Below are positions 3,554-44,191 of a stretch of 64,000 bases of DNA, in pieces (position 1 is the stretch's first letter; each line of letters begins with the position of its first letter). The notes below the pieces were generated by a model. It was given only the letters and a program-made list of their open reading frames with translations, had not been told where the DNA came from and searched no databases. Made by a program: the position numbers and the translations under genes. The DNA comes from Candidatus Woesearchaeota archaeon (GTDB taxonomy: Archaea > Nanobdellota > Nanobdellia > SCGC-AAA011-G17 > PNOQ01). Location: assembly GCA_964408705.1 (NCBI GenBank), contig CAYPAI010000001.1:63750-127749 (forward strand). Direction: 5' to 3'.

Positions 3554-4221
3554 AAGAATCCTTAAAAATAAGAAAGGAATTAAAATCAAGAAAACCTAAT
3601 TTTGTTAGAGGAGACTTTAATAAAGAAAAATCTAAAACAAGATCCAAATGGAAAAGACCAAGAGGCCTTCATAACAAAAGAAGATTAAAGAGAAAAGGAC
3701 ATCAAAAAAATCCGTCAGTAGGATTTAAATCGCCTAAAGAAGTTAGGAACTTAACAAAAAATGGATTAAAGCCTATCCATATCTATAATATTAATGATTT
3801 AAATAAAATAAAAGATAACACCTATCTTCCTATAATCTCTTCAAAAGTTGGCCTAAAAAATAAACTTGAAATTTTAGAAAAGTGTTTGTCTAATGGCATA
3901 GCTGTTTCAGCCATAAAGGATATTAAAAAGTTTATAGAAGAATCTAAAAACAAACTTAAGGATAAAAAAGAAGTTTCTAGGACGAGAATAGAAAAGAAGA
4001 AAAAAGAAGCTGAAGACTTAGCAAAGAAGAAAAAAGAAGCTGAAGACTTAGCAAAGAAGAAAAAAGATTCTTCAAAAGATAAACAAAAAAAAGTTGAAAA
4101 AGAAGTCCTGGGATCTAAACAAAAAAAAGAAAAGGCATTAGAAAAAAATTTAATTAAAAAAGACACAACTCAATCCAAAGGGGGCCATCAGGCAAGTAAT
4201 GTTCCTGGGACTAAACAATGA
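3550..4221 (+). CDS. rpl32e: 50S ribosomal protein L32e (eL32) with a long K/E-rich C-terminal extension
   Basis: The N-terminal ~130 aa match the L32e pattern (KFVRGDFNKEKSKTRSKWKRPRGLHNKRRLKRKG). The C-terminal ~90 aa are low-complexity K/E/A repeats (KKKKEAEDLA x2). Confidence 0.75.
   Translation: MKESLKIRKELKSRKPNFVRGDFNKEKSKTRSKWKRPRGLHNKRRLKRKGHQKNPSVGFKSPKEVRNLTKNGLKPIHIYNINDLNKIKDNTYLPIISSKVGLKNKLEILEKCLSNGIAVSAIKDIKKFIEESKNKLKDKKEVSRTRIEKKKKEAEDLAKKKKEAEDLAKKKKDSSKDKQKKVEKEVLGSKQKKEKALEKNLIKKDTTQSKGGHQASNVPGTKQ
3995..4068 (+). repeat. 30-bp tandem repeat (~2.5 copies) inside the rpl32e 3' extension
   Basis: aagaagaaaaaagaagctgaagacttagca occurs twice in tandem, followed by a partial third copy; it encodes KKKKEAEDLA repeats. 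Confidence 0.7.
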
Positions 4222-4676
4222 AACTAAACAAGCAAAAAAAACTTGCATCAAAAGTTTTCAAAAGAGGTATGAAGAGGATTAAATTTAACTCAGAAAAACT
4301 TGGAGATATAAAGGAAGCAATAACTAGATCAGATATTAGGGCACTAAGAATAACAAAAGCAATAATACCTACTCAAAAAAAATCTGTATCTAGATCAAAC
4401 GCAAGAAAGACCTTGAAACAGAAAAGAAAAGGTAGAAAAGTTGGAACTGGATCTAGGGAAGGTAAAAGCACTGCAAGATTATCTAAAAAAAGAAAATGGA
4501 TAAATAGAGTAAGGATCCAAAGGGAGTTTGTTAAAGAATTGAGAAACAAAAAGAAAGTTTCTTTACCTACTTACAGATCAATATATTCAAAAATTAAAGG
4601 AGGGTTTTTCAGAAGTAAAAACCACATAAAAACCTACTTAACTGAAAATAAATTATTTGAAAATGTCAAGCAATAA
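4218..4676 (+). CDS. rpl19e: 50S ribosomal protein L19e (eL19)
   Basis: 152 aa; basic, L19e-like N-terminus (KLNKQKKLASKVFKRGMKRIKF); cluster position. Confidence 0.8.
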   Translation: MKLNKQKKLASKVFKRGMKRIKFNSEKLGDIKEAITRSDIRALRITKAIIPTQKKSVSRSNARKTLKQKRKGRKVGTGSREGKSTARLSKKRKWINRVRIQREFVKELRNKKKVSLPTYRSIYSKIKGGFFRSKNHIKTYLTENKLFENVKQ

Positions 4677-5244
4677 AACCTATACTGTAAAAGTTAGAAG
4701 GAAAAGGGAAAGAAAGACTAACTATAGAAAGAGAGTTAAATATATCTCTTCAGGAAAAACCAGGATTGTTTTAAGAGTATCTAACAAAAATTTAAAAATA
4801 CAAGCAATAAACTTTGGCGAAAAAGGTGATATTTGTATTGGTGGAGTAAACTCTTTAGATCTTAAATCATTAGGTTGGAATGCCCCTACTGGAAATTTAT
4901 ATTCCTCATACCTTACAGGTTTACTTTTTGGATCTAAATTAAAATCAAAAATTAAAGAAGGGATAATTGATACTGGACTTAGGACAGTAAGAAAAAATAC
5001 AAGACTTTCTGCAGCAATAAAAGGCATAAGTGATTCTGGAATAGACATTCCTTTTTCAGAAGAAATATCCCCTTCTGAAAATAAACTCAATGGAGAGTTA
5101 ACTGCACAATATTCAAAAAAATTGAAATTAGAAAATGAAAATAAATTTAAATCACAATTTTCAAAATATTTAAAAGATGGAGTCAATCCTGAAGAAATAC
5201 CTAATTTATTTGAAAAAACTAGAAAAAAATTAATTGGAGCATAA
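4657..5244 (+). CDS. rpl18: 50S ribosomal protein L18 (uL18)
   Basis: 195 aa; RKRERKTNYRKR N-terminus and L18 fold pattern; precedes S5. Confidence 0.8.
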   Translation: MKMSSNKTYTVKVRRKRERKTNYRKRVKYISSGKTRIVLRVSNKNLKIQAINFGEKGDICIGGVNSLDLKSLGWNAPTGNLYSSYLTGLLFGSKLKSKIKEGIIDTGLRTVRKNTRLSAAIKGISDSGIDIPFSEEISPSENKLNGELTAQYSKKLKLENENKFKSQFSKYLKDGVNPEEIPNLFEKTRKKLIGA

Positions 5245-6006
5245 ATGGAACGAAGAAGAAAACCTAAATTTCAACATAAAAAACTTAGTGAAAAAGAAAG
5301 GCAAGCGGCAATTAGAGAAAGAGTTATCTCTGAGTGGGTTCCAAAAACAGAGTTAGGTAAAAAGGTAAAGTCAGGAGAAATAACAGAGATAGATAATGTA
5401 CTAGATAGTGGTATGAAAATTCTTGAACCACAAATAGTTGATGTATTATTACCCGATTTGGAATATGATTTGATTACAGTAGGGCAATCTAAAGGTAAGT
5501 TTGGGGGAGGCAAGAGGAGTATATGGAAGCAAACCCAGAAAAAAACTAGTGAAGGGAATAAACCTAAATTTTCAACTATTGCAATAGTTGGAAATAGAAA
5601 TGGTTATGTTGGCCTAGGAAGAGGTAAGGCTAAAGAGACTGTTCCTGCTAGGGAAAAAGCAATACGTAATGCTAAACTTAGTTTGATGAAATTAAGAAGA
5701 GGATGTGGTTCTTGGGAAGGTGTTCCTGGTACAAACTCAATTCCTTTTGAAACTCAGGGGAGATGTGGTTCCGTCAGGTTGAGATTGATTCCTGCACCTT
5801 CAGGAACAGGATTAGTTGCACATAAAGAAATACAAAAAATATTAAAATTTGCAGGAATCAAAGATGTGTATTCAAAAACAAAAGGTCAAACTAAGACTCA
5901 AATAAACTTAGTAAAGGCATGTATCCAAGCCTTCAAAAATCTAAATTCAATGAAAGTAAAAAAAGAAATGATAAGTGTTGTGGGATTGAAGGAAGGTAAA
6001 ATATGA
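5245..6006 (+). CDS. rps5: 30S ribosomal protein S5 (uS5)
   Basis: 253 aa; S5 dsRBD and C-terminal motifs (VGNRNGYVGLGRGKAKE, GSVRLRLIPAPSGTGLVA). Confidence 0.85.
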   Translation: MERRRKPKFQHKKLSEKERQAAIRERVISEWVPKTELGKKVKSGEITEIDNVLDSGMKILEPQIVDVLLPDLEYDLITVGQSKGKFGGGKRSIWKQTQKKTSEGNKPKFSTIAIVGNRNGYVGLGRGKAKETVPAREKAIRNAKLSLMKLRRGCGSWEGVPGTNSIPFETQGRCGSVRLRLIPAPSGTGLVAHKEIQKILKFAGIKDVYSKTKGQTKTQINLVKACIQAFKNLNSMKVKKEMISVVGLKEGKI

Positions 6007-6461
6007 CTAAGATTGCAATTATTAGGATAGCTGGAGAACAAGGGTTGAATAAGAAAGTTAAAAATACTTTTAAACTCTTAAACTTGCATAAAAAAAATTC
6101 TTGTATAATTATAACTTCTTCAGATTCTGTACAAGGGATGATTAATGTCATAAAAGATCATGCAACATGGGGAGAAGTTAATGATGCTACTATCAAGGAT
6201 CTTTTAGAAAAAAGGGGAAGACTTCCTGGTAAACAGAGATTAAGTGAAAAGTATGATAAAAAAGCTATTGAAGAGATGGCAAATAACCTAGAGGGAAGTA
6301 AAATAACAATAAAAGAAATTCCAGGATTAAAACCATTTTTTAGATTAAACCCACCAAGAAAGGGGTATGGTGCTAAAGGAACTAAAAAGCCTTTTTCATT
6401 AGGTGGTGCATTAGGATATAGAAAGGATAAAATAAATAATTTAATAAAAAATATGTTATAA
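6003..6461 (+). CDS. rpl30: 50S ribosomal protein L30 (uL30)
   Basis: 152 aa; L30-like N-terminus (IAIIRIAGEQGLNKKVKNTFKLLNL); follows S5. Confidence 0.8.
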   Translation: MTKIAIIRIAGEQGLNKKVKNTFKLLNLHKKNSCIIITSSDSVQGMINVIKDHATWGEVNDATIKDLLEKRGRLPGKQRLSEKYDKKAIEEMANNLEGSKITIKEIPGLKPFFRLNPPRKGYGAKGTKKPFSLGGALGYRKDKINNLIKNML

Positions 6462-6462
6462 A

Positions 6463-6882
6463 ATGTCAGTTAATAAAAGAAAAAAAAATACCAGAATGCG
6501 GGCAAAAACTACCCATGGATATGGTTCTATGAAAAAAAATCGTGGAGCAGGTAATCGAGGAGGAAGGGGTCTTGCTGGAACTGGTAAAAGGGCAGATCAG
6601 AAAAAACCAACTATTTTGAAAAATTATGGTTTAGCTTATTTTGGTAAAAAAGGTTTTAAAAATCAGAGGAGAGTAGGCATAAAAAGAAAGATATTAAACC
6701 TTGATCAATTAGACTTAACTAAAAAAGAAGGAGAGTTTTATGTTTTTGATGCATCTACTTATGATAAAATATTGGGAAAGGGCACCTTAAAAAATAAAAT
6801 AAAAATTAAATGTAAATCATTTTCAAAACTAGCAATTGATAAAATAGAAAAAGCTGGCGGAGAAGCTATAATATGTTCTTAA
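6463..6882 (+). CDS. rpl15: 50S ribosomal protein L15 (uL15)
   Basis: 139 aa; Gly/Arg-rich N-terminus (GAGNRGGRGLAGTGKR) typical of L15; precedes secY. Confidence 0.8.
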   Translation: MSVNKRKKNTRMRAKTTHGYGSMKKNRGAGNRGGRGLAGTGKRADQKKPTILKNYGLAYFGKKGFKNQRRVGIKRKILNLDQLDLTKKEGEFYVFDASTYDKILGKGTLKNKIKIKCKSFSKLAIDKIEKAGGEAIICS

Positions 6883-8315
6883 AAAATTTGATGGGGTACT
6901 TACCTGAAGTAATAGGGCCTAGTCATAAACCTTCATTTAATGAAAAATTAAAATGGTCAGGGATAATGTTATTTGCTTTTTTTGCATTATCAATGATCCC
7001 TCTTTTTGCATTAGGGGAGAACTCTCTTCAACAATTTGAACAATTATCTATAATTCTTGGTGCAAGTTTTGGTTCAATAATCTCTTTAGGTATTGGACCT
7101 ATTGTAACTGCATCTATCGTCCTTCAACTTTTAACAGGTTCCGGAATTTTAAATATTGATGTTTCATCTCCAGAAGGAAAAAAATATTTTCAAGGACTTC
7201 AAAAACTATTGGCAATATTCTTTATATTCTTAGAAGGGGCTATCTATGTCCTAATGGGAGGTTTAACTCCTGCAGTCACCTTATCTCCTTCATTGTTTAA
7301 GATGGCACAACTTGTACTTATATTCCAGTTATGTTTAGGAGGATTACTTGTACTTTTCATGGATGAAGTAATATCTAAATGGGGATTTGGGTCTGGAGTC
7401 AGTTTGTTTATTGCAGCAGGAGTGTCTCAGCAAATTTTTGTAAGGGCATTTTCTCCATTAACTCAGTTAGGTACAATGGCATTTGGTTCTGGAGAATCTC
7501 CAATCGGAAGTGTATGGGTTTTACTAAGTGCCATAATGAATGCCGATTTGTTAGGTGCAGCAATGCCTTTTTTCGCAATTCTCTTTACATTAATTGTGTT
7601 TGCATTAGCAGTTTACGCACAAGCAATGAAAGTAGAGATACCTTTATCTTTCGGTAGAGTTAGGGGCCATGGTATAAGATGGCCTTTAAGATTTATATAT
7701 ACTTCAAATATTCCAGTTATTTTGGTTGCTGCATTTATGGCAAATATTCAACTTTGGGCAAGATTGATGCAAAACAAGTCTGAGGGTAGTGCAGGAGTTA
7801 TGGCATGGCTATCTGAACATTTTTTTGGACACTTTGCAGGAAGTGTACCTATTTCAGGATTAGTTTATTGGACTTATCCTCCAAACTTGGTAGAATATTT
7901 CTTAAATAGTTCCATGTCAGGATCGTGGAGCTTAGAACCTTTAACTCAAGCTTTAGTATATACTTTATTTATGGTTTCTGGTGCAGTAGTATTCTCTATC
8001 TTTTGGGTACAAACTGCAGGAATGGATGCTAAATCTCAAGCTAAAAAGATTATGTCTTCAGGATTACAAATGCCAGGATTTAGAAGAGATCCAAGAGTAT
8101 TAGAAACTGTGCTAAACAGGTACATTGGCCCTTTGACTATAATGGGGGCAATTGCTGTAGGGGCGTTAGCTGCAATTGCGGACCTAAGCGGGTCTTTAGC
8201 TAGAGGAACAGGAATTCTTTTAGCAGTAATGATAATTTATAGACTATATGAAGAAGTTGCACAACAACATATGATGGATATGAATCCAGGATTAAGAAAA
8301 ATGATGGGAGGGTAA
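6873..8315 (+). CDS. secY: Preprotein translocase subunit SecY
   Basis: 480 aa; 10-TM protein with conserved SecY segments; holds the canonical position after L15. Confidence 0.9.
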   Translation: MFLKNLMGYLPEVIGPSHKPSFNEKLKWSGIMLFAFFALSMIPLFALGENSLQQFEQLSIILGASFGSIISLGIGPIVTASIVLQLLTGSGILNIDVSSPEGKKYFQGLQKLLAIFFIFLEGAIYVLMGGLTPAVTLSPSLFKMAQLVLIFQLCLGGLLVLFMDEVISKWGFGSGVSLFIAAGVSQQIFVRAFSPLTQLGTMAFGSGESPIGSVWVLLSAIMNADLLGAAMPFFAILFTLIVFALAVYAQAMKVEIPLSFGRVRGHGIRWPLRFIYTSNIPVILVAAFMANIQLWARLMQNKSEGSAGVMAWLSEHFFGHFAGSVPISGLVYWTYPPNLVEYFLNSSMSGSWSLEPLTQALVYTLFMVSGAVVFSIFWVQTAGMDAKSQAKKIMSSGLQMPGFRRDPRVLETVLNRYIGPLTIMGAIAVGALAAIADLSGSLARGTGILLAVMIIYRLYEEVAQQHMMDMNPGLRKMMGG

Positions 8316-33566: not shown

Positions 33567-35888
33567 CTAACCACAACAACATCTTATTCCACAATCAAAA
33601 GGTCCATAACAATAATCATCCCCCCAATCATCAAAATCTGTATTACACCCCAGAGGATATTGTACTTCAAATTGGCAAAGATCATAATAATTAGTTGCCT
33701 CATACCAATATGACATATCATGATTACAACTATCTGGCGAGTTTCCTCCGTAATACTTCCATCCTCCGCCTGATTGATCTACGTCTCCCATCATATACCA
33801 CCAGTTTATATAATTACCCCATTGACAGTTGTCTTGGCAATTAAGTCCTTTACTTTGGCAGAACTCCTCACAATTTCCTTCATTTAATTCGTCCTGGTTA
33901 CAATCATGCTCAAAAGTGAACGGAGTTTGTTCCCCATGATGATCATACAATTGTCCTCCTGGATAAGGTGCAGAGCCATCTGGACAATGAGGATAACCGT
34001 CTTCTTGATCACCATTCCAATCACAATCATAAACTTCTGAGTCTTGTGTTCCTTCTGGATAAGTAGAATAACTTACTGGCCATCCTTGATGCTCATGACA
34101 ATTGTTTGGCCAGTTTCCCCAAGTTGAACTCCATCCGCACTCGCTATGGCATACTTCATACCAATTATTCCCAGATAATTCACAACCAGGCCCTCCCCAT
34201 TCGGCATCTCCATTACAAACTCCTGCGCAGTCAAATTCTCCAAACCCTCCACACTCTCCCGTGCAATCTGATTGGGAGTTTCCACCACAAGTCCCTGTAC
34301 AGTCTATTTCTAATCCTCCTCCGCACTGTCCTGAACAGTCTGCCCAAACATCTCCTTCTACTTCACAAACACAACTACCATGCTGGTTAGTATTTACTCC
34401 ATCTCCATTACATACTCCACAATCATCCCTTTCTGAAGATCCTCCACAAACTCCAAAACAATCTTGTTCTGCATTGCCCCCACACTGTCCTGAACAGTCT
34501 GCCCAAACATCTCCTTCTACTTCACAAACACAACTACCATGCTGGTTAGTATTTACTCCATCTCCATTACATACTCCACAATCATCTATTTCGGCTGAAC
34601 CTGCACAAATACCAAAACAATCTTGTTCTGAATTACCCCCACATTGTCCTGCACAATCTACTTCTGTGTCTCCGTCACACACGCCTGCACAATCTTCACA
34701 GCTAGAGTGGCAACTATCAAGATAATATCCACAAAAGCCACATTCATCTAGCACTTTAGTTCCCCCACAAACTCCTGCACAATCTACTTCCTGTGTACAT
34801 TCTCCATCGCAATCATACTGATTGTCTGGATAGTTCTCAGGGTATATGCAACTTGTTGATGTTGTTGCAGTATTTTGATAATTACACCCATCTTCATCAG
34901 TGCATCCTGAATAAGTTGTATGGAAGCAATTACCCCATTCCGTAGGAATTTGTGACCCAGTAGTATCTGAAATAATTCTGGCATTGTTATTGTCAAAACA
35001 AACCTCAGAACCTATCGAACTATACTCAATTTCTAAAATTAATTGTGTTTCTTTATTTATTGTTAGTTCAGACGATCCACACTCTATACAATCGGCAGGT
35101 ATAACTTGACCACTTATTGAAAATGCGAGAACCATAGGATTTCCTGCTTTAGAAGATATTATAAAATCATTCTCCTCAACACTCCCTCCTGACACATCTT
35201 CTAATTCAAGTCCTTCAACATTAAATTGTATTCCTGCGACATTCGTATTGCTAGTCATATAAACCTTTATTTTTTTGTTGATTGTATCTACTTCTAGTAT
35301 TTCAACTTTCGCAGCAGGTTCAGTCCTTAGTGGGTCTTCTTCTGGAAAGTTTGCATCCACATTCGTGCCAGTGTAAAGAACAGGATCTAAAACATCATAC
35401 ACAGACAATGCCTCTGCATCTGCATAGTGGTCACAAATCCAAGTTTCGCCCTGGTGATGACCATACCTTATACAATTTGCCATTTTAATGTACCAAGGGG
35501 TACCTCCTCCTCCACTTTCTTCACAATCACAAGTCTCGCAATTCATACACTCATCTTGGCCATTTACGTTGCAAGAATTACAACAAACACAATTACTTCC
35601 CAGATTTGCACCCACTATCCCTTTAGGTTTTTCAACAAAACAATCTTCACCTTTAAATTCGTGTGGTCCAAATCTTTCCCAACCTTTGCACGAAATTCCT
35701 TTCTTTATTAATTCAAATGAAGAAGGCGCATTACCTTGGATCCTATCTATCTCTAAACTTATACGTTCAACAATTCTTTGGACAGCATTATCTCTGGGGT
35801 CTTGAGATTGCCTAGAAAACTCGGTACATCCTGAAATAAATAAAATACTGATTAATAATAAACTTAAAACTAAATTACCTCTTTTCAT
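33567..35888 (-). CDS. Large secreted/surface Cys-rich repeat protein with cohesin-like domain (putative lipoprotein)
   Basis: 773 aa; signal peptide with lipobox-like ISGC. Dozens of CxGxCGG...DxCGVCNGDG Asp-rich, Ca-binding-like repeats. The central segment resembles a cohesin/Ig-like beta-sandwich (VEILEVDTINKKIKVYMTSNTNVAGIQFNVEGLELEDV). More than 100 Cys in total. Confidence 0.6.
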   Translation of the reverse strand: MKRGNLVLSLLLISILFISGCTEFSRQSQDPRDNAVQRIVERISLEIDRIQGNAPSSFELIKKGISCKGWERFGPHEFKGEDCFVEKPKGIVGANLGSNCVCCNSCNVNGQDECMNCETCDCEESGGGGTPWYIKMANCIRYGHHQGETWICDHYADAEALSVYDVLDPVLYTGTNVDANFPEEDPLRTEPAAKVEILEVDTINKKIKVYMTSNTNVAGIQFNVEGLELEDVSGGSVEENDFIISSKAGNPMVLAFSISGQVIPADCIECGSSELTINKETQLILEIEYSSIGSEVCFDNNNARIISDTTGSQIPTEWGNCFHTTYSGCTDEDGCNYQNTATTSTSCIYPENYPDNQYDCDGECTQEVDCAGVCGGTKVLDECGFCGYYLDSCHSSCEDCAGVCDGDTEVDCAGQCGGNSEQDCFGICAGSAEIDDCGVCNGDGVNTNQHGSCVCEVEGDVWADCSGQCGGNAEQDCFGVCGGSSERDDCGVCNGDGVNTNQHGSCVCEVEGDVWADCSGQCGGGLEIDCTGTCGGNSQSDCTGECGGFGEFDCAGVCNGDAEWGGPGCELSGNNWYEVCHSECGWSSTWGNWPNNCHEHQGWPVSYSTYPEGTQDSEVYDCDWNGDQEDGYPHCPDGSAPYPGGQLYDHHGEQTPFTFEHDCNQDELNEGNCEEFCQSKGLNCQDNCQWGNYINWWYMMGDVDQSGGGWKYYGGNSPDSCNHDMSYWYEATNYYDLCQFEVQYPLGCNTDFDDWGDDYCYGPFDCGIRCCCG
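34300..34700. repeat. Near-identical tandem direct repeat (~157-bp unit, ~2.5 copies) inside the Cys-rich protein gene
   Basis: Two ~110-bp blocks (about 34326-34437 and 34483-34590) are almost identical (ctgtcctgaacagtctgcccaaacatctccttctacttcacaaacacaactaccatgctggttagtatttactccatctccattacatactccacaatcatc). A partial third copy follows. Confidence 0.7.
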
Positions 35889-40924: not shown

Positions 40925-41512
40925 ATGGTTTTTAAATTTTTTAAAACAAAAAGTTCAAAATTAGATAAAAAATTTAAAGAAATTAATAATAGTTTAACCA
41001 GTTCTTTTTTAAAAATAAAGGAAGATATTTTATCAATAAGTACCCATTTAGGAGATCTCCATACTCACAAAGAAAATCATAGTGAGTTAATCAAGGAATT
41101 AGATTCTCGAATTAAAACATTAGAAAATTTTATTGAAGATATACTTTCTAACCAGCCACGTGTCCAAACAACCCACGTGTCCAAACAAACACAAACAAAT
41201 GTCCGTCCAAAACGGATGTCCGTTCCTGTCCAAACAGAAGTTTTAGAAAGTTTAAAAAGACTAACACCCATGGAAAGGTCATTAGTATGGGCACTTTTAA
41301 ACACAGATATAAGGCTTAGTTATAGTGACCTCTCAAGGATACTTGGCAAAGACGAGTCTACAGTGAGAGGACAAGTTAGCAACATAAAAAGGAAAACGGA
41401 TGACCTTGTGTTAGAACAAAGTGAGAACAGCGGACAAAAAAGATTTTATGTTGAAGAAAGAGTAAAAAACAAAATAATGAGAAAATATAAGGTTAAAGGC
41501 AGGAAAAAATAG
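40925..41512 (+). CDS. Coiled-coil plus C-terminal HTH protein (paralog A)
   Basis: 195 aa; N-terminal heptad-like coiled coil, a low-complexity Q/T/P linker, and a C-terminal HTH (LTPMERSLVWALLNTDIRLSYSDLSRILGKDESTVRGQVSNIKRK). Confidence 0.45.
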   Translation: MVFKFFKTKSSKLDKKFKEINNSLTSSFLKIKEDILSISTHLGDLHTHKENHSELIKELDSRIKTLENFIEDILSNQPRVQTTHVSKQTQTNVRPKRMSVPVQTEVLESLKRLTPMERSLVWALLNTDIRLSYSDLSRILGKDESTVRGQVSNIKRKTDDLVLEQSENSGQKRFYVEERVKNKIMRKYKVKGRKK

Positions 41513-41602: not shown

Positions 41603-42190
41603 TTAAGAAAACCTTGTTTGATTGGGATCTTTGTGATAGTAAAGGTTAGTTAATTTTTCTTTAAGATTTAATTCCTTAAAATCTTGGTGAATAGTGAGAG
41701 TTATTGTACGATTATTGAGTTTTTTCTTTAAAAGAGGTAACCCTTTCCTTATTATAGAGCTAATATAACTCCTAATGCACCCCATAGAAAGGTTTAATTT
41801 TGAAGATAAATCATTGTAATTAACATTTCTGCCTAAATCCTCCTCTAATTGATATATTGTCAAAAACACTAAGAACTCTTGATTAGTGAGATTATCTATT
41901 CTTTTTTCTAAAGTTTTCTTTAATGATTGAATGTTTAATGAATGATTATTTGTTGAATGATTATTTGTTGAATGATTGAGTGAATAGACCCCTTCATTTC
42001 CAGTGGAACTTTTACTCTGATCGAGAGGTATTTGAAGAGTAGGAGCCTCGTTCCCACCATATTTACCACTTTGGCTAATTTTCTCTAATATTTTATCCAA
42101 TTTAGCTTCAATACCTTCTACCCTCTCGCTTAATGAAGAAATATCTTCTTTTACCTTTGTGAAAGATTGTCTTACCTTATCTTGAAACAT
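41603..42190 (-). CDS. Coiled-coil plus C-terminal HTH protein (paralog B)
   Basis: 195 aa; same architecture and length as paralog A (VKEDISSLSE vs IKEDILSIST; HTH LTNQEFLVFLTIYQLEEDLGRNVNYNDLSSKLNLSMGCIRSYISSIIRK). Contains HSTNN tandem repeats. Confidence 0.45.
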   Translation of the reverse strand: MFQDKVRQSFTKVKEDISSLSERVEGIEAKLDKILEKISQSGKYGGNEAPTLQIPLDQSKSSTGNEGVYSLNHSTNNHSTNNHSLNIQSLKKTLEKRIDNLTNQEFLVFLTIYQLEEDLGRNVNYNDLSSKLNLSMGCIRSYISSIIRKGLPLLKKKLNNRTITLTIHQDFKELNLKEKLTNLYYHKDPNQTRFS

Positions 42191-42283: not shown

Positions 42284-42556
42284 CTAAATGGATAAAGTTT
42301 TATATTGATCATATATTTTTGATTTTAAGATCCATTTTTTTCGAGAAAGATACTGTTTACCGTCGGTGTTTTTATTTATTTCTTTAATAAATCCTTCATT
42401 TTTTAATTCTTTTAATAGCCTTAATATAAACTCTTCATCCCTTATCATTTCTTCAGCGATATTTGATGTATATAGAGGTTGGAAGTGATTATCATAGATT
42501 ACTGAGAGTATGTGTTCTTTTATTTTTTTTATTTTATCTTTGCTTAATCTAGACAT
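42284..42556 (-). CDS. Small winged-helix DNA-binding protein
   Basis: 90 aa; HTH-wing pattern (YTSNIAEEMIRDEEFILRLLKELKNEGFIKE...GKQYL), like small wHTH regulators of archaeal plasmids and viruses. Confidence 0.45.
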   Translation of the reverse strand: MSRLSKDKIKKIKEHILSVIYDNHFQPLYTSNIAEEMIRDEEFILRLLKELKNEGFIKEINKNTDGKQYLSRKKWILKSKIYDQYKTLSI

Positions 42557-42613
42557 AATTATACCTATCTCGAGAAGTATTTAAGTTATTCGTTTAAAGG
42601 GAAAAGTTGTTGA

Positions 42614-42805
42614 TTAACAACAACTGTGGTATAATTTTTTTAAACCCATCAAAACAAAACTTATTGCAACAACTTCTTCTAGTACAAGAATTGCTTGCCA
42701 CAAAGATATACCTAATCCTAGTAAGATAATTCCTTTTGCAACCAACATACTCTTACTACAACAGCTGTGACACATTTTCTGATCTTTGCTCTTTTTTTTA
42801 ACCAT
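42614..42805 (-). CDS. Small membrane peptide with terminal Cys motifs
   Basis: 63 aa; MCHSCCSKS at the N-terminus and HSCC at the C-terminus flank one or two TM helices. Confidence 0.35.
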   Translation of the reverse strand: MVKKKSKDQKMCHSCCSKSMLVAKGIILLGLGISLWQAILVLEEVVAISFVLMGLKKLYHSCC

Positions 42806-42848
42806 CTTATCACCTCTAATTTAATCTTAGAGTTATACTTTATATATT

Positions 42849-43403
42849 TTACTCATATATATTAAACTCGTCTTTGGAACACATTATCGCCATAAATAAT
42901 CCTGCTCCCTTACTTTTAGAATCTTTTATTTTTTTAAACTCTTCAAGATCTTTTGATGAGGCTATACATCTCTTATGAGGGTGCGAATGTAACCATCCTA
43001 TGGTTCCTTCAGGACAAGAAAGATATGTTACGCTGTTAAAACTTTGATGGATTATTTTAGGAATGAAGATATCCTCTATATAATATTCCCTGTTATAATT
43101 ACCAATTAGGCATGCAACAATTTCAACATCTTGGTTCGACAAATACTCTTCCTTTAGTTTATTATAACTTTCTCCAAGGAAAACTATTAAAAATCCTTCA
43201 CCAACTATGGAGTTATTAACTATTTGTTTGGATTCTATACTACTCCCTATAACCTCCCCCAGAGGGTATCCTATGATGAGGTATGCTGTTGTCATTATTA
43301 TTAAAAAAAATGCAATAGTCTTTGTGAATCTGTGCTTATTCTCTTCTTCTTCAGTTAAGACTTCTTCAGTTAAGATTTCATCTAATTCTTTTTTTGAAAA
43401 CAT
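42849..43403 (-). CDS. Membrane-anchored JAMM/MPN+ (JAB) metalloprotease-like protein
   Basis: 184 aa; acidic N-terminus, one TM helix, then a JAB core with E...HSHPHKRCIASSKD (the HxHx7Sx2D zinc-ligand motif) preceded by conserved Glu (EIVACLIG...YYIED). Confidence 0.55.
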   Translation of the reverse strand: MFSKKELDEILTEEVLTEEEENKHRFTKTIAFFLIIMTTAYLIIGYPLGEVIGSSIESKQIVNNSIVGEGFLIVFLGESYNKLKEEYLSNQDVEIVACLIGNYNREYYIEDIFIPKIIHQSFNSVTYLSCPEGTIGWLHSHPHKRCIASSKDLEEFKKIKDSKSKGAGLFMAIMCSKDEFNIYE

Positions 43404-43507
43404 TCTTTACATATCTTTCTTTCTTGGTCATAACACCTTTTGCATGCCTGGCCTCCACAAAGAGTGCAAGTACCCTCTGACAAGTTCACCATACACCTAT
43501 TACACAT
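43382..43507 (-). CDS. Small zinc-ribbon peptide overlapping the JAMM gene start (not in the ORF track)
   Basis: ~41 aa read by eye (MCNRCMVNLSEGTCTLCGGQACKRCYDQERKICKECFQKKN). It has four to five CxxC pairs. Its 3' end overlaps the JAMM ORF start in another frame. Confidence 0.3.
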   Translation of the reverse strand: MCNRCMVNLSEGTCTLCGGQACKRCYDQERKICKECFQKKN

Positions 43508-43765
43508 AATCAACCTTTTCATAATTAGTATAGTTAGTTTTTCGTTTATATTCTTTTATGTTTAAGTGGAGCCTTAATTAATTACAGAGTGGTATCGGGT
43601 TCTAAAATATAGGTGGTAAAAATTGTAACTAACTTGACAAATATATATAAATGGATAAAAAAAATTAAATAAATATGTTAAAAGAACTTCATATCTTAAA
43701 AATTATGAAAGATGAGAACTGTAGCTGGGAAGAGGCTACTGAAAAGAAAAAAGAAATTATAGACC

Positions 43766-44191
43766 TTAATGAGTTTCTTGTTTAGTTTTATCTGCCTTAA
43801 AATGTGGTAACCTTATATGAGGGGGAAGATTCAATTCTTGAGAAAGATTTAGTGCCTTGATATTACACTTTGCAAGAATAGTGTTAAGGATAGATGTTGT
43901 TAAACTTTGTGATAGTTTTTTATCCTTTTTCCAATCTGCTAAGATTTCTTTTACTTTTTCTGGTTCTTCCATATACAATACTGAACCATCTAAGCCTATC
44001 TGTCCAACCTCTGGCTCATACTTTATACCATAACTAAAACTAAATTTTAATACTTCTTCAGATTTACTAAGAGTTAGGCTTTCTTGTTCTACATTGGTAA
44101 TTGCTAAACTATTCTTGATTTCAACTTTTCCTGAAAGTTTAGTAATTTTTTGTGCATCTATTTTATCTATATTTAATCCTATAACTGGCAT
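43766..44191 (-). CDS. Hypothetical conserved-looking protein
   Basis: 141-aa ORF downstream of argS on the same strand; no motif recognised. Confidence 0.35.
   Translation of the reverse strand: MPVIGLNIDKIDAQKITKLSGKVEIKNSLAITNVEQESLTLSKSEEVLKFSFSYGIKYEPEVGQIGLDGSVLYMEEPEKVKEILADWKKDKKLSQSLTTSILNTILAKCNIKALNLSQELNLPPHIRLPHFKADKTKQETH

Follow-up and report, generated by a model that had tools for sequence, protein, structure and literature searches.

The 64-kb window analysed here (64,000 nucleotides of contig CAYPAI010000001.1, from a Candidatus Woesearchaeota archaeon) encodes, at 42849-43403 on the minus strand, a protein of 184 amino acids (aa) in which a single transmembrane (TM) helix is followed by a JAB domain of the JAMM/MPN+ class. 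We consider it rather probable that this protein, referred to below as the JAB protein, represents an active-type, outward-facing, stand-alone family of JAMM metallopeptidases of Woesearchaeota/Nanoarchaeia. Its gene is one of four closely packed open reading frames (ORFs) which, on an ORF reading of the sequence, occupy window positions 42284-43522, all on the minus strand. The other three are predicted to encode a small zinc ribbon, a 63-aa membrane peptide with Cys motifs and a 90-aa winged helix-turn-helix (wHTH) protein. A preliminary description of this sequence had placed the four ORFs correctly, and had taken them for a compact four-gene module, a proposal that is weighed below.

The JAB protein consists of an acidic N-terminal tail (residues 1-28), one TM helix (residues ~29-49) and a minimal JAB domain (residues ~58-184). 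The full E...HxHx7Sx2D site is present exactly as had been described, as E94...H139-S-H141-x7-S149-x2-D152; the catalytic Glu E94 is encoded at 43122-43124 and the zinc-binding part of the motif from H139 to D152 (HSHPHKRCIASSKD) at 42948-42989, both on the minus strand. Standard profiles recognize the window protein weakly. Pfam JAB (PF01398) matches it with E 9e-4 and 19.5 bits against a cut-off of 22.5, and Prok-JAB (PF14464) with E 5e-3 and 17.1 bits against a cut-off of 25, so that neither gathering threshold is reached. The PADLOC profile for JAB matches at 1.5e-6 over the motif region only, sequences in the PDB compared with the single window protein give E 0.05 or worse, and a word-index homologue search with the JAB protein returned nothing beyond the protein itself.

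An exhaustive HMMER search, in which 1.84 billion representatives were scanned, recovered 210 homologues at E<=1e-3 and 148 at E<=1e-10, nearly all of them 170-200 aa long and aligned across both the TM helix and the JAB region. Throughout the family alignment (122 members, mean column identity 25%) residues E94, C98, H139, P142, C146, S149, D152 and C175 are invariant, and H141 (119 of 122) and C130, G101 and P115 (121 each) are nearly so. Conservation of HxH...S..D in homologues had been named beforehand as a test of the catalytic site, and these counts support the site at all four positions. Prok-JAB reaches E<=0.01 in just 58 of the 122 members, with a best value of 9.4e-6. An inactive pseudo-enzyme was considered and is rejected on the family-wide conservation of the catalytic residues.

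Structure prediction followed by a Foldseek search, a check that the preliminary description had proposed, gave a concordant answer. AlphaFold2 (AF2) run on the single sequence yielded a predicted local distance difference test score (pLDDT) of 33, and run with the 122-sequence alignment a pLDDT of 92.3. The top Foldseek matches of the latter model are all JAMM/MPN+ proteins, the best being the Caldiarchaeum subterraneum Rpn11 homologue (3.6e-5), followed by Rpn11, CSN5, BRCC36, AMSH and AfJAMM, and PfJAMM1 is also among the structural relatives. When the family profile was compared with the PDB, AMSH/Sst2 was matched at 2e-5 and every other significant match was again a JAMM protein. Alignment by hhalign to AfJAMM, in a sequence 100% identical to 1OI0, equates E94 with E22, H139 and H141 with H67 and H69, C146 with C74, S149 with S77 and D152 with D80. 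The domain thus has both the alpha-beta fold of MPN/JAB proteins and the conserved catalytic motif, as expected of a true JAMM/MPN+ domain, and fold and motif outweigh the missed Pfam cut-offs: this is a divergent JAMM subfamily. Judged from its sequence and modelled structure, the 184-aa protein is predicted to be an active-type JAMM/MPN+ zinc metallopeptidase.

Homologues in this family carry the NCBI label of hypothetical proteins, and the GTDB genomes in which the family occurs are labelled Candidatus Woesearchaeota or Nanoarchaeia. It is a previously unannotated family, widespread among the sampled members of these DPANN archaea. Literature searches found no membrane-anchored or extracellular JAB/JAMM protein in DPANN archaea or Woesearchaeota, which agrees with the earlier remark that a membrane-anchored architecture is unusual for this class of enzymes.

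The N-terminal TM helix reported for the window protein corresponds to a strongly hydrophobic stretch encoded at 43257-43319 (minus strand), called where the mean Kyte-Doolittle value exceeds 1.7 over 19 residues. Each of the 122 family members has one hydrophobic segment (mean Kyte-Doolittle value over 19 residues, 2.66), preceded by a charged tail of ~28 residues. The two sides of the helix differ in charge. Across the 122 members, the 15 residues preceding the helix contain on average 3.47 Lys plus Arg and those following it 0.88, these residues are more numerous before than after in 116 members, and the net charge of the eight residues flanking it on each side is +2.15 before and -0.54 after. 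According to the positive-inside rule, the positively charged flank of a TM helix is the cytoplasmic one. The charge bias taken with this rule argues for an N-in/C-out signal anchor, and hence for a JAB domain that is probably outside, on the outer face of the cytoplasmic membrane.

The longer members of the family fit this orientation. They are extended solely at the N-terminus, either by highly charged, low-complexity tails or, in one protein (P0148, found on 7 contigs), by a GGACT/AIG2-like domain. P0148, encoded at 4001-4837 in loci L039/L040, is a GGACT-TM-JAB fusion in which a domain of cytoplasmic type (Pfam GGACT, 2.3e-18) stands N-terminal to the TM helix, and it lacks a signal peptide. 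A gene for VKOR, a disulfide-formation protein, lies ~3.3 kb downstream of the P0148 gene.

The family is also marked by its cysteines: 112 of the 122 members have exactly four, all at conserved positions. In AfJAMM, a disulfide between C74 and C95 stabilises the zinc-binding loop (PMC300881). C146 of the JAB protein aligns to C74 in the hhalign comparison, and C175, like C95 in AfJAMM, stands at the end of the strand that follows helix alpha2; the latter equivalence is drawn from position, the hhalign alignment ending before C175. We propose that disulfides may form in the JAB family as well.

Taken together, we picture for every member a short charged N-terminal tail in the cytoplasm, a single signal-anchor TM helix and, directly after it, a minimal AfJAMM-like catalytic domain, which the anchor would hold on the outer face of the cytoplasmic membrane. 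There the enzyme would cleave a peptide or isopeptide linkage of an envelope or secreted substrate close to the membrane, a substrate class that we infer; taking off SAMP or ubiquitin-like tags in the cytoplasm would not be its role.

The genomic surroundings of the family were surveyed at 27 related loci, drawn from exact-protein look-ups, GTDB genomes and JGI metagenomes; the GTDB and JGI loci were collected with a 6-sequence alignment of the family, and all ORFs were compared with the genes of the window. The 27 loci represent about a dozen different gene contexts. Neighbours of the JAB gene outside the window include a TyrRS/TrpRS-type synthetase, HisRS, pyruvate kinase, FtsZ, DnaG, primase and pyrF/HtpX, and also an EamA transporter, a lipoprotein-like gene, DUF11/DUF7619 surface proteins and a secreted transglutaminase-like protein. 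Several of the same-strand neighbours that abut or overlap the JAB gene encode membrane or secreted proteins. No neighbour family is common to the JAB loci of this survey outside syntenic blocks, and the JAB gene behaves as a stand-alone chromosomal core gene of Woesearchaeota.

The transglutaminase-like protein is found in one sub-lineage (L019, L016, L034 and L035). It is 551 aa long and secreted (Transglut_core, 5.5e-26), and its gene is convergent with the JAB gene, at 4754-6409 (minus strand) in L019 and 6456-8111 (minus strand) in L016. It overlaps the 3' end of the JAB gene by 4 nucleotides (nt) in L019 and L034, and DnaG lies upstream.

The preliminary description had seen no ThiS/MoaD-like, E1 or E2 partner, and this holds for the 64-kb window as well as for the 27 neighbourhoods. 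The window contains no ThiF or ThiS among the neighbours and no plausible small ORF ending in GG, and no beta-grasp/diglycine protein and no E1 were found in the 27 neighbourhoods.

The family can be set against known JAMM systems on the same grounds. AfJAMM (AF2198, PDB 1OI0/1R5X) and PfJAMM1 (5LD9) are minimal archaeal JAMM/MPN+ domains, soluble and cytoplasmic. Compared with them, the present family adds a charged N-terminal tail, a signal-anchor TM helix, a short helix and a beta-hairpin before the core and three further conserved cysteines, shares only ~20% identity, and falls below the Pfam cut-offs in most of its members. PfJAMM1 and HvJAMM1 reportedly act on SAMPs; in contrast to deconjugases of this type, which are soluble and cytoplasmic, all 122 members of the family have a TM helix. 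Rpn11, CSN5, BRCC36, AMSH/Sst2 and the C. subterraneum Rpn11 homologue (6FNN) reside in the cytoplasm or nucleus, function in large complexes or together with MPN- partners, and hydrolyse isopeptide bonds of ubiquitin or Nedd8, whereas the present family is membrane-anchored, is predicted to face outward and has no ubiquitin-like, E1/E2 or MPN- partner nearby. Cap3 of CBASS and BilC of Bil are soluble and are encoded beside CD-NTase/Cap2 or ubiquitin-like, E1 and E2 genes; such genes are absent from all 27 neighbourhoods, where the family sits among housekeeping and envelope genes, and for the window protein PADLOC matched JAB profiles and no partners.

The JAB protein could instead be a membrane-tethered deconjugase facing the cytoplasm, N-out/C-in or otherwise cytoplasmic, that takes SAMP or ubiquitin-like tags off membrane proteins, as AMSH does at endosomal membranes. 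The nearest relatives in sequence and structure are indeed isopeptidases of ubiquitin or ubiquitin-like proteins (AMSH/Sst2, matched by the family profile; Rpn11, its C. subterraneum homologue and PfJAMM1), and it is established that the biochemically characterised JAMM enzymes are all cytoplasmic or nuclear. AfJAMM, with equivalent cysteines, is cytoplasmic and yet has its disulfide, so the conserved cysteines are no proof of an extracytoplasmic location. Against this alternative stand the excess of Lys and Arg on the N-terminal side of the helix and the opposite charges of its flanks; the GGACT domain and the long charged N-terminal tails, which would need to cross the membrane with no signal peptide to direct them; and the lack of a beta-grasp/diglycine protein or an E1 in the window and the 27 neighbourhoods. 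An outward-facing topology likewise weakens the reading as a ubiquitin-like isopeptidase or a classical SAMP deconjugase. On balance we regard a cytoplasm-facing deconjugase as unlikely.

Several further points count against an outward-facing envelope enzyme and should be read with it. Its orientation is derived from the positive-inside rule plus a single fusion, and the N-terminal tail, taken as a whole, is net acidic. To our knowledge, every characterised JAMM enzyme works inside cells, on conjugates of ubiquitin, ubiquitin-like or related type. Of the close neighbours on the strand of the JAB gene, about half are cytosolic housekeeping genes, the search of the source genome for ubiquitin-like proteins and E1 covered 64 kb, and our survey found no substrate candidate for the JAB protein.

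The second alternative is that the four ORFs form one functional module, such as a regulated membrane protease system, or a module for defence or conjugation. The ORFs share a strand and are tightly packed, with a 22-nt overlap between zinc ribbon and JAB gene; moreover, the 63-aa peptide and the wHTH protein both follow the JAB gene in L011, and the wHTH protein does so in five loci. This arrangement is not kept, however, in the related loci. The zinc ribbon occurs in 0 of 27 and the 63-aa peptide in 1, namely L011, which is closely related and stems from the same sampling campaign; the wHTH protein occurs in 5 (L009, L011, L014 and the near-identical pair L021/L024). These five loci belong to one sub-lineage in which the order of ArgRS, p141, a 36-aa ORF, p195a, p195b and usually XerA is also kept. 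Since the wHTH gene is found only where ArgRS, p141, p195a and p195b are syntenic too, its presence reflects general synteny and no specific link between JAB and wHTH.

Within this sub-lineage the slot directly upstream of the JAB gene, taken by the zinc ribbon in the window, varies: it holds an unrelated membrane protein of ~231 aa in L009, L014 and L021, an EamA transporter in L013 and L022, and nothing in L011. The ~231-aa protein (3313-4008 in L009, 4192-4884 in L014 and 3378-4076 in L021) is conserved, has no Pfam match and carries two N-terminal TM helices; its ORF abuts or overlaps the JAB start.

Co-occurrence of the four genes, for which the preliminary description had proposed a search across archaeal genomes, was therefore not found in the 27 related loci, and the compact module is absent elsewhere. 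A link to defence or conjugation, raised in the preliminary description, fares no better: the flanking genes have housekeeping or envelope functions, and the only PADLOC profiles matched were generic ones for JAB and wHTH. The window has ~30% G+C and no local anomaly in G+C or skew, and therefore gives no sign of a mobile element, and the wHTH gene has a TATA-like element of its own. The neighbourhood survey has largely refuted the four-gene module, to which we give a small chance; the three small genes are local additions or matters of general synteny, not obligate partners.

A more specific proposal within the outward-facing reading is that the enzyme is an extracytoplasmic JAMM isopeptidase acting on gamma-glutamyl-epsilon-lysine cross-links, either in the Woesearchaeote's own envelope or in that of its host. 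GGACT is gamma-glutamylamine cyclotransferase, named for breaking down gamma-glutamyl-amines. Two independent weak hints point in this direction, each from one lineage: the GGACT fusion and the convergent secreted transglutaminase-like protein. Literature searches combining JAB, GGCT and transglutaminase gave nothing relevant, and we hold this substrate to be a long shot.

Of the small ORFs, the zinc ribbon (43382-43522, minus strand) is basic and has eight Cys arranged as CxxC-x8-CxxC-x4-CxxC-x7-CxxC, a pattern that fits two predicted zinc sites. It had been described as a 41-aa ORF overlapping the JAB start by ~20 nt. The overlap stands, at 22 nt; the first ATG gives 46 aa, and the length of 41 aa corresponds to a second ATG at 43507. 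None of the other window ORFs in the range of 30-80 aa (281 in all) has four CxxC pairs, and the background frequency of Cys over six frames is 1.9%; on this account it is not a chance ORF. Its best profile matches (zf-RING_5, E 0.062; Prok-RING_2, 0.11; B-box, 0.81; DZR, 0.92) are all far below cut-offs, no homologue was found in any search made, and tblastn for degenerate relics of it in the relatives returned noise only. On public contigs it is not called as a gene. An AT-rich, TATA-like element can be read directly from the sequence ~30 nt upstream. We regard the zinc ribbon as a lineage-specific orphan. Its stop codon lies 22 nt inside the JAB ORF, which is in the -1 frame relative to it, and through this overlap the zinc ribbon is probably co-transcribed with the JAB gene and translationally coupled to it. 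As a speculation, any contact of the zinc ribbon, a basic cytoplasmic protein, with the JAB protein would be limited to the acidic tail that the latter has in the cytoplasm.

The overlap contains an A_AAA_AAG heptamer (43388-43394, minus strand) in the zero frame of the zinc-ribbon ORF, from which the -1 frame is exactly that of JAB. A -1 ribosomal frameshift at this site would produce, beside the separate proteins, a ~224-aa zinc ribbon-TM-JAB fusion with the predicted junction peptide …CFQKKELDEILTEE…, the zinc ribbon being an optional N-terminal cytoplasmic domain. The family does accept additional domains on the cytoplasmic, N-terminal side, the GGACT-TM-JAB fusion being an example, and 8 contigs recovered from several samples and assemblies agree exactly in this sequence, so that the A-run is no assembly error. 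In-frame A_AAA_AAG is, on the other hand, common in this genome of 30% G+C (23 copies in 52 kb of long ORFs) and so a weak signal, the N-terminus of the JAB protein matches the homologues' own starts so that no fusion is needed, and the zinc ribbon is absent from all relatives; we judge such a frameshift very improbable.

The 63-aa peptide (42614-42805, minus strand) has a basic N-terminus, a CHSCC cluster (MCHSCC), a hydrophobic hairpin and a C-terminal HSCC, and is preceded by a GGTGA Shine-Dalgarno-like site. Its homologue in L011 (66 aa, E 1e-18) occupies the same position, and it is absent from the other 26 loci. The 90-aa protein (42284-42556, minus strand) gives weak matches that consistently fall on wHTH regions: HTH_69 (0.0028), Rrf2 (0.021), the Csa3 wHTH (4.9e-4) and CasR (1.4e-4), all below curated cut-offs, as is a match to a PHROG helicase C-terminal profile (5e-6). 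Its homologues in L009, L011, L014, L021 and L024 are found at E 1e-29 to 1e-33, and the TATA-like element of its gene was read by eye ~30 nt upstream. Two short contigs of the same population, L006 and L007, differ from the window inside the wHTH gene only, at 42393, 42409 and 42465. The changes are G>T or C>A and result in E50* and G55V, plus S31* in L006; they could reflect pseudogenisation in a sub-population, or sequencing damage.

The preliminary description had allowed that the small ORFs might lack coding conservation. The 63-aa peptide and the wHTH protein have conserved homologues, and none was found for the zinc ribbon; with these homologues and the overwhelming Cys pattern of the zinc ribbon, all three read as real genes. 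The 8 contigs that carry the exact JAB protein are 99.9-100% identical across the region and therefore yield no selection signal. A scan for sigma-70 promoters and terminators stayed at background level, and such signals do not apply to archaea.

Elsewhere the window encodes Cdc6/Orc1 and the PolD small subunit, both archaeal replication proteins, as well as XerA, the last lying, with small orphan genes, within a block that is syntenic across relatives. p141 (141 aa, 43766-44191, minus strand) is directly downstream of ArgRS and is strongly conserved in relatives (E 1e-47 to 1e-51); it shows a weak, sub-threshold match to RNase P component 1 and no other family match. The 36-aa ORF (MLKELHILKIMKDENCSWEEATEKKKEIIDLNEFLV; 43675-43785, plus strand) is flanked by p141 and the zinc ribbon and runs convergently into the 3' end of p141, which it overlaps. 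With conserved counterparts in 6 syntenic loci (E 1e-9 to 1e-13), it is probably a real micro-protein. Two convergent genes, at 41603-42190 (minus strand) and 40925-41512 (plus strand), encode 195-aa proteins with an N-terminal coiled coil and a C-terminal wHTH, the former with an NHSTNNHS low-complexity linker, and both are conserved in the syntenic sub-lineage. Finally, a 773-aa protein at 33567-35888 (minus strand) combines a signal or lipoprotein-like sequence at its N-terminus (…ISILFISGC) with nine CxxC motifs, and is probably a Cys-rich surface protein.

The novelty lies in an unannotated and architecturally unusual JAMM subfamily, not in a new kind of system. With the misleading operon hypothesis removed, the zinc ribbon, the Cys peptide and the wHTH protein should not guide the search for a substrate. 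At ~180 aa, with a confident structural model and an unambiguous active site, the family is a tractable target for biochemistry. JAMM/MPN+ enzymes are known as cytoplasmic or nuclear isopeptidases of ubiquitin-like systems, and a signal-anchored, probably outward-facing family would carry JAMM chemistry into the envelope of DPANN archaea, which depend on other cells or live attached to them; a cross-link isopeptidase there, if true, would be the first of the JAMM superfamily to work outside the cell.

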